A stretch of DNA of 64,000 nt from Pocillopora damicornis (GCF_003704095.1 NW_020845054.1:248001-312000); one strand, 5' to 3'. Counted from the stretch's first letter, positions 28,258 to 31,800 are shown. A program made the numbers and translations. Notes: generated by a model from the sequence alone, not told the origin.

Positions 28258-28818
28258 TCACACTTGGGTAAATCTCCCTAATTGTGTCTTGCAAAGAGGA
28301 CATAAATGGATCACATCCTTAAATGATTTGATAAAGAAAGGTATTAAACAGCAGCCAAAATGACAGCCAAAGGCACATAACAAACCTGCTAGTGCCCAGG
28401 TCGCGCTACTTACACGGTATTCAGTGTATGTCAAGACCCGGATCCCACATGAAGTGCAACAAGTCGAGCCAGGGACATCTTTAAAGCTTTCATACCTTGC
28501 TTGCGGTTGAACATCAAAGATCTTTCGACCTTCTTTCTTGGTAAACGTTGTTTCCTGAACAAGTTGAAGGGTAACACTGCTTTTGCTGCTTTCGCTTAAA
28601 CTTGTTGCCGACTCTGAGGGCAGACAAGTTATTTCGGGAGTAACACAAAAGGCCTGTGGAACTCGGAAGTTATTTGGAAAACTTTCCATAGGGTTTTCGT
28701 GCTCCATTGACAAATGTGTCTCGTTTGAAAAACTAGTGCCAACTCCAAATGACTCCAATAAGACGGAAATACTCGTTTCAGAACAATCAGCGAATCTACC
28801 AGCCGGGCGCAGGTTCAT
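28258..28818 (-). CDS. LITAF/SIMPLE-like domain protein
   Basis: 186 aa ORF with a C-terminal LITAF domain: CTSC, hydrophobic helix TWALAGLLCAFGCHFGCCLIPF, then KDVIHLCPLC..LG. A splice acceptor at 28844 (TTTTGCAG|) lies just upstream of the ATG. Confidence 0.9.
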   Translation of the reverse strand: MNLRPAGRFADCSETSISVLLESFGVGTSFSNETHLSMEHENPMESFPNNFRVPQAFCVTPEITCLPSESATSLSESSKSSVTLQLVQETTFTKKEGRKIFDVQPQARYESFKDVPGSTCCTSCGIRVLTYTEYRVSSATWALAGLLCAFGCHFGCCLIPFFIKSFKDVIHLCPLCKTQLGRFTQV

Positions 28819-31800
28819 GTTAGATATCTCTACTGCCTTAGGTCCTGCAAAATCAAAATAATATCTGACATCAATTTGCTGTTGACCTTTTCATTTAATG
28901 ACAATTTAGGGCCACGCTCAACCAGGATGCTTTGCAGGGGAAGTGGCCATTCTCAGCTGTTTTCTGTATTTCAGAAAAGGAAAGCCAAAAAGAATACTAA
29001 GGGGGAGAGGAAGAGGAAACTTGTCATTTGAAATTTAAAAACGAAAGGGATTTCCTACATGAGTTGCCCAAAGAGAGGAACACGTACGAAATTTCAATTA
29101 CATGTGAAATACAGAAAGGTAAACTGAATAAAAACAGGCAGTAGTCTCACGATAGCTGGGACAATGAAAATAATAATTGGAACATTAATGATCGTAAGAA
29201 AAACAAATAAAAGTAATACTGATGATGCTATAAGATATCATTGTGCATATGTAGAGTTCTGTTGTTTCGTCTTAAACAAAAAAGACGTTATTTGGTGAGG
29301 TTTGACAAACATATCCGGCATATGAGACTGCCGATTTTAATTTAGAGGACTGATCGGAGTAGTCTTGTTTTGGGTTTTTGATCGCTGACAGTTTTTGGAA
29401 TAAAAAGCAGGATGGAGATATCTGAAAACGTTATAGCTCGGTGTTGCAGGGTTGTGGACCGATATACGGCCCTCTTTTTTAAAATGCTAACTTCAGTACG
29501 CATTAAGCATCTGAATGTGTCACCATATAGCCTCTTGATAGTTGTTTACAGCATATAAACATATCTTGTATTAAAAGGACTTTAAGTAGTAAGGCCATTC
29601 AGAACTAACTTGATGTCTCAGATATCACGTATAGAGCTTTATGCTTTAAATGAAGACAACTGGGAAGGTTTGTCGGGCAACAGAATTTTCAAACGGGGTA
29701 ATTTAAGTTAAAGAAGATGTTTCAACGAATATTCGACTCACCTGCGCTTCAAATGTTTTCATAAGCGTTTTTTCTGCAAAACACCTTCACCGTTGCAATA
29801 ATTTTTTAAAATTCACGCATTTATTAGAAAAATCATCCAATCTTTGATTTTGTGTTCCCGTCAAGTTCTTGCTCCAAATAACGAGATATTCTTGATAACC
29901 AGCTTTACCTCAGTAAGATGCTTAATTAAGTAATTTTCGAGCCGCGGGAAGGAAGAAATAATGAATAAATTCGTTTTTTTTTTTTAGTAGAATAACAGTT
30001 TTGCTATCACCGCCTTTAAGTTCATTAATTTTTAAGGCCCTTCATTATATTGTTCCGAAAGACTAAACATATTTTGAGCAAAACGCCTCTCCTAAATGTT
30101 AATCGAATTTAAGAAAATCGCTCTTCAACTTAGGACTAAAATTCGCTTTCAAAGGATAATTACAGTTGACCTTGAATTTGGCAGAAAATTTTAACTAATA
30201 CTCATCTGACTTCGCATATAAAGCGAAAAGTTACTTACCTCGAGTTGAAAATGAGTCAATTCCTCCTATTTAGTATAGATTCTTTTTTTTAAATGAAAAT
30301 CAGTCGACAGTCCTTCGAGACAGTACTTAAAAATTTCTTGTCTATAGCATTGCCCACTTAATTCTTTAATTTTGTCATTTCCCTCTGTGTTCGCCGCCTA
30401 TGCAAATTTGTATTCGCATTTTAGCAATTATCCTCACCGTGTTTATTCTTTCATCTTTTTTTTTTTATATACTTGAAGGGTTAAGATCTTTTGTCAAGTT
30501 CGCCACTGATATCAAAAGATTCTGAATGACATTAAGTGAAAATTTCATCTCCAATTTACTTGACCGCTCAGGGCTTGAGAAAGAACTGGTTTGTTTTACA
30601 TTTTACTATGAAGATTTTTGTTTCTTGAAATTGAAATTCTGATCATTTACTTACCTGATCACCACAGGGCCTGAGAAAGAAACAGTTTGAAGTTATCTCC
30701 CGCAAAGGACGCACTGCGCACAATTTTCATCATACACTTTTCAAAATATGTTGCTAAAAAATATACCAGGAGGGTATAACATGATGTTAAGATGACATCA
30801 TAGGTTACGTTAAGTTGCCAAGCAACCTAATATGATCGCAGCTTTCACCGAGATGAGGCTAAATGTACCATGTAGTGGCTTTTTGGTTGACGAAGTTCAT
30901 AAACTATAAATTTGTGCCAGGGTGGACGTTTGAATTGGACATATCTGCATAAGGTATAAGAAACGTGCTTGAACCTCTCCAAAACTACCAGCTTAGTCAA
31001 CAAAAGGAAGTGGGCGTTGTAACGAGACAGGGGTGTATCACTGCACTTTCCATTTCGAAGACAGAACCACTGATGTTTTCTTATTAATGCTCGTTGCGAT
31101 AAAAAAGAGACTAGAAATTTTAAGCAAAAACGACACAAAACGAGTGAGGGACATTGAGCACGAAAGTTTGCATAACGCTCGCTTTTTTTAGAAGCAAATA
31201 CAAATTAATTTCTCTCTAACAAAGACCTGTCGGCAGAGATCGTTCACTCATGAGAGTTGTTGAGCATTTTCTACGCTGTTTGTCAGTTGGTGATTAACCG
31301 GCCGTTGTTGAAGAAGCTATTTTGGCAGTTAGGTCTGTTGCCTTGTGGAGAAATAACTGATGTAGAAAGGTTTAAATAATTAAATTAAAGTGAGGATTGA
31401 GCGCCGGAAAAAAAATTGAGAGGCCGTCGGTGAAGGTTCGATTGCCCTACTGTGTGCAAGAATAGTTTGGTTAATAATCACACCCGGCCTAGCTAGTGAG
31501 CGCATGCTACAAACTTTTGCTTCTGATTCCGCAGTAAGGCTCATAGATATACTCGAGACCATGCAGAAGAAGAATTAGACTCCACCTTTGTTACTTATAC
31601 TGTCACCAATAGAAACTGTTGTGTATTTGCTTAAAAAGTCCACGTCAATTCTGTTATCTGTTATGTTCATTGATGTTCAGCGTCGTTAGAGTCCCTGCCG
31701 ACCGAGCGTCGTAAAACCAAAAGTGAGGAAAGCACAACGGGCAATCAAAACAAATGAAACAATCACATGAAGCCAATGAGAGCGTAAAATAAAAACAAGC

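Follow-up and report, generated by a model that had tools for sequence, protein, structure and literature searches.

An apparently undescribed LITAF-domain gene without the canonical arm motifs separates Gsx from Xlox/Cdx in the ParaHox pair of a coral

Can the ParaHox pair of a coral hold an unrelated protein-coding gene between its two homeobox genes and, if so, how long has that gene been there and what drives it? The question is raised by a 64,000-nucleotide (nt) stretch of the Pocillopora damicornis genome (GCF_003704095.1, NW_020845054.1:248001-312000; hereafter the window, with positions counted from its first letter), in which an open reading frame (ORF) with a LITAF domain was located between Gsx and Xlox/Cdx. 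A first-pass annotation, made from the sequence alone, had viewed this ORF as a lineage-specific, possibly retroposed insertion which may be driven by ParaHox enhancers. It is reported here that this LITAF gene, which lacks the proline-rich arm, is real, apparently undescribed and apparently older than that annotation had supposed.

The ORF (28258..28818, minus strand) is a single reading frame of 186 amino acids, in which a Ser/Thr-rich, proline-poor arm (residues 1-114) is followed by a LITAF zinc-ribbon domain (residues 115-183; 28270..28476, minus strand) with the order CxxC, hydrophobic stretch, HxCxxC. Residues 115-183 matched the Pfam family zf-LITAF-like (PF10601) with an E value of 1.6e-20 and 73.5 bits, against a cut-off of 23.8. 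The zinc knuckles are CTSC and HLCPLC (ligands C121/C124 and H171-C173/C176), and all four knuckle cysteines were invariant in the aligned LITAF sequences (20/20). The LITAF family is recognised by a hydrophobic stretch of approximately 22 residues separating the Cys pairs; the window protein has such a stretch, and its hydropathy peak (1.97 for the best 19-residue span, residues 145-163) falls between the two pairs. An AlphaFold model built from 20 sequences was uninformative (pLDDT 42), with a helix at residues 138-151 at low confidence, while no relatives among solved structures were found at E<0.001 and matches in the ESM Atlas were to generic LITAF clusters only.

A motif scan of the 186-amino-acid protein identified no PPxY, LPxY or P(S/T)AP, in agreement with the earlier description of the arm as free of PPxY and P(S/T)AP. 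Within the orthogroup to which the protein belongs (described below), PPxY was present in 1 of 21 rows and P(S/T)AP in none, and the arm was proline-poor, with a median Pro content of 0.066 vs 0.183 in other LITAF rows. The absence of both motifs is not in itself rare among LITAF proteins: one or the other was present in 90 of 173 other LITAF rows and both were missing in 83, some of which may be fragments. The arm contains two short conserved words, which are candidate docking sites. A reading of the conserved word P[EK]IICLP as a calcineurin-docking site (PxIxIT-like) was left as speculation, the fit being poor at two positions. Human LITAF/SIMPLE and CDIP1 share with the coral protein a C-terminal LITAF domain, two Cys pairs flanking a hydrophobic stretch, short length and an unstructured N-terminal arm, but the coral protein differs in having neither PPxY nor P(S/T)AP and in its Ser/Thr-rich, proline-poor arm. 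Zinc binding and monotopic membrane insertion have been shown for human LITAF and CDIP1 (passages of PMC5095921 and PMC5142333), and the proline-rich arm is described as canonical for LITAF across eukaryotes, apicomplexans excepted (PMC5142333, in part). For the coral protein, a role in endosomal sorting is by default improbable, because mutation of the PPxY tyrosines sends human LITAF to the plasma membrane (also in part of PMC5142333). The label 'immune/endosomal' previously given to the gene is therefore doubtful, since the endosome-targeting motifs of LITAF are exactly those missing here.

Transcription of the gene was examined in public sequencing runs. Twenty-three runs are listed for 27800-31000, 13 of them recorded as RNA, and four runs, from four studies, were compared over 23500-43400. 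These runs were chosen for containing the LITAF gene, and their RNA contigs inform on structure, not on expression level; expression was not ranked by contig depth, and X8, a random-primed run with 27 of 30 bins covered, was excluded from the RNA evidence. An X1 contig spans 28051-28843 and is spliced to an exon at 30655-30745; in X10, a loose end of 16 letters matches the exon at 30655 at the same junction, and an X2 contig joins the acceptor at 28844 to an alternative exon at 30239; splicing was accordingly seen as joints in two polyA runs and as a loose end in a third. The observed part of the first 5' untranslated region (UTR) exon (30655..30745, minus strand) bears a short upstream ORF which stops before the junction, and the end point of 30700 proposed in the first-pass annotation falls inside this exon. 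The observed part of the alternative 5' UTR exon (30239..30321, minus strand), seen as a joint in one X2 contig, has no in-frame ATG. The second exon (27694..28844, minus strand) consists of a 26-nt leader from the acceptor at 28844, the whole ORF and the 3' UTR; the X1 and X2 contigs both end at 27694, and AATAAA is found at 27624. Both 5' introns are GT-AG and, because both leaders hold an in-frame stop, the first ATG that could serve as a start is that at 28818. The P. verrucosa RefSeq protein XP_058968465.1, a member of a 96%-identical cluster, is likewise 186 amino acids long. The 3' UTR contains an imperfect inverted repeat (27990-28212; 226 nt at 67%), possibly a small transposon relic or an RNA hairpin.

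The gene models for P. damicornis and P. meandrina contain a 65-nt GT-AG intron (28383-28319) which would delete the hydrophobic anchor and shift the frame. This intron was rejected, as the X1 contig reads straight through it; an X10 contig covers 28264-28434 with no joint listed at 28383-28319, and a gap in X2 there is uninformative. That two Pocillopora models cut out the membrane anchor helps to explain why the gene has stayed unnamed; its RefSeq entry reads 'uncharacterized'.

A six-frame motif scan of the window identified two homeoboxes, both on the minus strand. The upstream gene is Gsx (cnox2/HOX2A; 41749..43400, minus strand), with coding exons at 43011-42684 and 42463-42180; its first exon shares 98% identity with a cluster containing Pocillopora/Stylophora 'GS homeobox 1', and its splicing was visible in three of the four RNA runs, including a 177-nt 5' UTR intron (43061-43237) in one X1 contig. 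The downstream gene is Xlox/Cdx (HOX2B; 21935..24543, minus strand), in which exon 1 runs to 24159 and the homeobox exon lies near 22220-21935; loose ends at 24159 in X1 and X2 (two of the four runs) map exon 1 to exon 2. Its homeodomain has His at position 44, the Xlox-type residue of Nematostella NVHD065 (PMC1779807, in part). The ORF, Pfam and homeobox scans together upheld the earlier statement that a complete ORF with a LITAF domain lies between Gsx and Xlox/Cdx on the strand of both.

A homologue search recovered 22 relatives, 44-99% identical, from 131 candidates, with Pocillopora as the source of the nearest named proteins, and a metagenome scan recovered nine loci (L001-L009) from 186 candidate stretches. 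The locus tags of Gsx and the LITAF orthologue are adjacent in Oculina patagonica (ACROYT_G018066 and ACROYT_G018067); the corresponding identifiers are pdam_00011955 and 11954 in P. damicornis and CAH3045647 and CAH3045645 in P. meandrina. The protein of L006 is 46% identical to that of the window, and its 10 kb of upstream sequence matches window positions 33696-39020 in order and orientation. The side of Gsx on which the gene lies can be deduced from L006, because the collinear blocks it shares are those lying between Gsx and the LITAF gene; L001 has the 33696 block too. These non-coding blocks (33696..39020, no strand assigned) are at 33696-33782, 35668-35827, 36379-36682, 37329-38153 and 38811-39020. 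Over 836 nt, the core block (37329-38153) shares 82% identity with L006, including an identical run of 63 nt, and three 100-column blocks are more than 90% identical, while synonymous sites differ by approximately 0.53-0.61. Four long ORFs tested at 33372-37989 gave no Pfam match and positions 21000-44000 gave no Rfam match, and the blocks are candidate ParaHox enhancers. Pocillopora and Oculina are robust corals of different families. Because the position is shared with Oculina, the arrangement is older than the genus Pocillopora, and it likely predates the Pocillopora-Oculina divergence. In its narrow sense the term 'lineage-specific' is consequently not supported, as the position is common to Oculina (adjacent locus tags) and L006 (collinear blocks).

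Several further observations were made in the same interval. Short X2 and X10 RNA contigs were seen at 38112-38383. An X1 contig ends near 33600, and 16 letters match a canonical acceptor at 33326 (33326-33600, minus strand), a weak hint of spliced upstream RNA; the acceptor is also used in the P. damicornis and P. meandrina models, and the window has no GT at the corresponding donor. The segment 33184-33443 is conserved and inverted in L001 (1365-1631) and L006 (6149-6394), which may reflect a small local inversion or a repeat. Contig depth was present in all four runs at 31468-32131, where a 72-letter loose end at 31805 was unmapped within the window, probably a transcribed interspersed repeat.

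The locus corresponds to the coral ParaHox pair 'H2' (POMP, HOX2A/Gsx, HOX2B and CD027/HPF1; PMC6214176), with which it shares Gsx, Xlox/Cdx and HPF1, but the LITAF gene is unmentioned in section 7 and two supplementary files of that paper and POMP is unconfirmed in the window, not being found in a Pfam scan of 23 chosen frames. HPF1 (CD027), described in part of the same paper as flanking the coral pair, was found at 16723..18627 (plus strand), with the Pfam HPF1 domain in all three exon frames tested. In Table S13 of Ying et al. the gene IDs do not follow position closely enough to tell how many genes separate HOX2A from HOX2B, and their order was set aside. A full-text literature search for ParaHox together with LITAF, with single-cell atlas supplements outside its scope, found nothing; four locus tags of the LITAF gene and one of Gsx had no literature match, and the gene is unmentioned in the searched passages of PMC9825252, PMC7305137 and PMC11067881. 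Within the literature searched, the gene is apparently undescribed.

Selection was estimated as the ratio of non-synonymous to synonymous substitution rates (dN/dS) for the window together with L001, L003, L006, L007 and L008; L002, L004 and L005 were left out as near-copies of L003, and L009 as partial. Domain dN/dS was 0.07-0.25 in all five window-versus-locus pairs (Fisher P of 4e-6 or lower) and below 1 in 15 of 15 pairs, significantly so (P<0.05) in 13. The LITAF gene is live and under purifying selection, with a fast-evolving arm; the spliced RNA and the non-neutral domain values established a functional, transcribed gene rather than the pseudogene that the first-pass annotation had asked about.

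Between the window and the closer loci, the sole non-coding match near the LITAF gene was at 30792-30841. It includes a conserved promoter block (30792..30826, no strand assigned) consisting of an RFX X-box (30814-30826) and then two words resembling cAMP response elements (CRE) or basic leucine zipper (bZIP) sites. The X-box is palindromic and has no second match in the 64 kb, where 0.09 matches would be expected; it fits the strict consensus given in PMC2375033 (in part). Its distance above the observed 5' end of the RNA is 69 nt, inside the range for functional X-boxes in a passage of PMC5838959. The X-box was found at the homologous place in L001, L003, L004, L005 and L006, with changes which remain within the published consensus. 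The pattern occurs in six of nine loci, these five and L007, where the match is downstream of the gene; L002, L007 and L009 stop short of the promoter. Of 25 Drosophila genes tested that have a conserved, restricted X-box, 16 were targets of RFX (PMC2375033, in part), and RFX factors control ciliary and sperm genes according to paper abstracts. An Anopheles LITAF, which is a parallel only and not an orthologue, influences sperm quality according to part of a preprint (10.64898/2026.08.31.748190). The X-box points to predicted control in ciliated cells or sperm, not necessarily to ParaHox control, and the promoter as predicted points away from the gastrodermal control proposed earlier.

The explanation preferred here, to which about an even chance is given, is that the LITAF gene is a predicted RFX-driven passenger, kept in place by surrounding non-coding elements. 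The gene would have resided as a passenger between Gsx and Xlox/Cdx since before the Pocillopora-Oculina split, with its own predicted RFX promoter, of the cilia or sperm type, as driver. As in the LITAF family generally, the domain would bind zinc and its hydrophobic stretch would insert in the cytosolic leaflet. Without PPxY and PSAP, recruitment of NEDD4 and of ESCRT-I, an endosomal sorting complex, would be lost, the variant would tend to remain at the plasma membrane (possibly ciliary or flagellar), and the fast-evolving Ser/Thr-rich arm may dock other partners. Judging from the layout, position would be kept through embedding among conserved non-coding elements which probably serve Gsx or Xlox/Cdx, not through shared expression.

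A number of observations weigh against this explanation. The X-box pattern was fitted after the site had been seen, and 9 of 100 shuffles still match; as L003-L005 are near-copies, the five X-box loci represent about three lineages, and no exact X-box was found in L008 over 4.7 kb upstream. The predicted RFX control depends on one motif, and RFX activity and ParaHox enhancers would not be mutually exclusive. With regard to position, the Oculina locus tags give adjacency to Gsx and not side, and L008, the most distant locus, matches the window, repeats aside, within the ORF but nowhere else. Gsx and Xlox/Cdx were present in none of the nine loci, no locus being long enough to include either; tBLASTn with both exons of each gene likewise found nothing in all nine, with queries too short for absence to be implied. 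The arm is weakly constrained, with dN/dS of 0.38-0.92 over 14 measurable pairs (one pair was saturated), and among the RNA-contig differences listed, seven are in the ORF, of which five alter a residue, four of those in the arm.

How the gene arrived is a question of origin, compatible with the passenger explanation and separate from its probability. The Oculina GenBank model and one full-length protein have ten extra N-terminal residues, and a 10-codon coding micro-exon with a phase-1 GTGAGT donor was found in L001, L003, L004, L005 and L006. L008 has one candidate micro-exon, equal in length and phase and similarly distant, and its exon 2 has no Met before the domain. A relic of this ancestral coding first exon was aligned in the window at 30315..30345 (minus strand) to the micro-exon of L001, L003 and L006; its distances to the X-box and acceptor equal those in the three loci, its ATG is now ATA and its GT donor is gone. 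The Met at 28818, common to the window and a 71%-identical relative, aligns to Ile in the micro-exon loci, and the GTAAGT donor of the exon at 30655-30745 is absent from L001, L003 and L006. On these alignments, the intron-free ORF seen here arose when the start exon was lost and an internal ATG took over. The earlier statement that the gene has no coding introns was accurate for this genome, given the in-frame stops in both leaders, but not as an ancestral state, since the condition is derived.

The retroposition that had been suggested on the basis of that statement is weakened by the coding first exon and phase-1 intron of the orthologues, but it may still apply to the uninterrupted second exon. 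In that event, a processed LITAF copy would have entered the interval long ago and later acquired a promoter, with a short coding first exon replacing the proline-rich arm, and the chances of this are put slightly below even. The arm and the entire domain occupy a single exon in the window and in eight of nine loci (the ninth has the 3' part only), while human LITAF has an intron within the domain; retrogenes commonly acquire 5' exons and come to be expressed in the testis, for which the SYCP1 retrogene of amphioxus is a precedent. Arguing the other way, L001, L003-L006 and the Oculina model carry a phase-1 coding intron following codon 10, of which L008 holds a candidate. No A-run of at least 8 was found in the 1.26 kb downstream of the gene, neither a poly(A) relic nor a target-site duplication being expected at such an age. 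No parent gene was found, and the orthogroup had no supported sister in the tree beyond three more distant proteins (P0123, P0126 and P0155).

That tree, a quick one, was built from 194 LITAF domains over 78 columns, with three rows lacking both Cys pairs excluded. Twenty-one rows formed one orthogroup (Shimodaira-Hasegawa-like approximate likelihood ratio test (SH-aLRT) support of 97), inside which a deeper branch includes the L008-type protein. P0123, P0126 and P0155, which are single-ORF, proline-poor proteins, joined outside it at SH-aLRT 91, and P0123 has both N-terminal motifs of the orthogroup arm. Such a grouping would suit a pre-scleractinian age, with the gene an ancestral anthozoan resident of the ParaHox interval overlooked by annotation, but this is considered doubtful. 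The three proteins have no recorded neighbours, and the tree behind the grouping has only 78 columns. Among 37 homologue hits there was no named anemone protein in the orthogroup (nor a named coral orthologue in that search), and the two Nematostella genes, separated by 12,977 nt, are presented in part of PMC1779807 without an intervening gene, although one is not stated to be excluded.

It is unlikely that shared enhancers in the conserved blocks drive the LITAF gene along with the cluster, in Gsx+ neural precursors or Xlox/Cdx+ mesentery endoderm. The gene is on the strand of both neighbours, its position is maintained between distant corals, strongly conserved non-coding blocks lie 3-8 kb upstream of its promoter and all three genes were present in the RNA runs examined. 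However, contigs from bulk libraries, in runs picked for containing the LITAF gene, cannot show co-expression, the gene has a conserved promoter element of its own, and the nearest precedent, SYCP1 beside the amphioxus ParaHox cluster, did not adopt ParaHox-like expression (PMC5803294, in part). Less likely again is a combination in which an ESCRT-independent LITAF subfamily joined the anthozoan ParaHox cluster in pre-scleractinian times and its RFX promoter and the cluster enhancers together direct it to Gsx+ ciliated neurons, which would make the pair a three-gene regulatory block with a membrane-protein effector. A decaying pseudogene or recent Pocillopora-specific insertion is highly improbable: the ancestral start exon is lost in the window and two Pocillopora gene models lack the domain, but the frame is open, all zinc ligands are kept, selection is purifying, spliced X1 RNA reads unspliced through the anchor and orthologues occur in many corals.

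Comparable residents are known elsewhere. In mammals PRHOXNB/URAD lies between Pdx1 and Cdx2. As a likeness, PRHOXNB/URAD at chordate ParaHox clusters is an unrelated gene tolerated at or within the cluster (PMC3698058, in part), but it is a multi-exon enzyme gene and differs in family, lineage and interval. SYCP1 of amphioxus is, like the coral gene, a non-homeobox gene with one long coding exon and alternative 5' UTR exons at a ParaHox locus, and both have a germ-line association, predicted on the coral side from the X-box; SYCP1 differs in lying beside the cluster, in sharing the CHIC promoter and in having a proven multi-exon ancestor (passages of PMC5803294). The coral gene, by comparison, is inside the pair with a predicted X-box promoter of its own, and its retroposition is unproven.

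Elsewhere in the window, a CH_2 'sperm protein' exon is present at 3174-3383 (minus strand) and an intronless rhodopsin-family receptor at 5468-6400 (plus strand). A weak Erf4 match at 10512-10760 (plus strand; E 0.006, below the cut-off) resembles CHIC, a ParaHox neighbour. An assembly gap of 100 N lies near 51880-51980, upstream of Gsx.

ParaHox clusters are usually called intact when the homeobox genes have no other gene between them. That a coral keeps a conserved, protein-coding gene, equipped with a promoter of its own, between Gsx and Xlox/Cdx shows that the cnidarian pair tolerates a resident. The locus also provides candidate enhancers at 37.3-38.2 kb, a clean example in which the start exon was lost and the start shifted to an internal ATG, and a naturally occurring LITAF that lacks the NEDD4/ESCRT arm. 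The resident could serve as a built-in reporter for whether cnidarian ParaHox genes share cluster-wide enhancers: if it ignores them, clustering would be held by local elements, and if it follows them, cluster-wide control would be older than the bilaterians.

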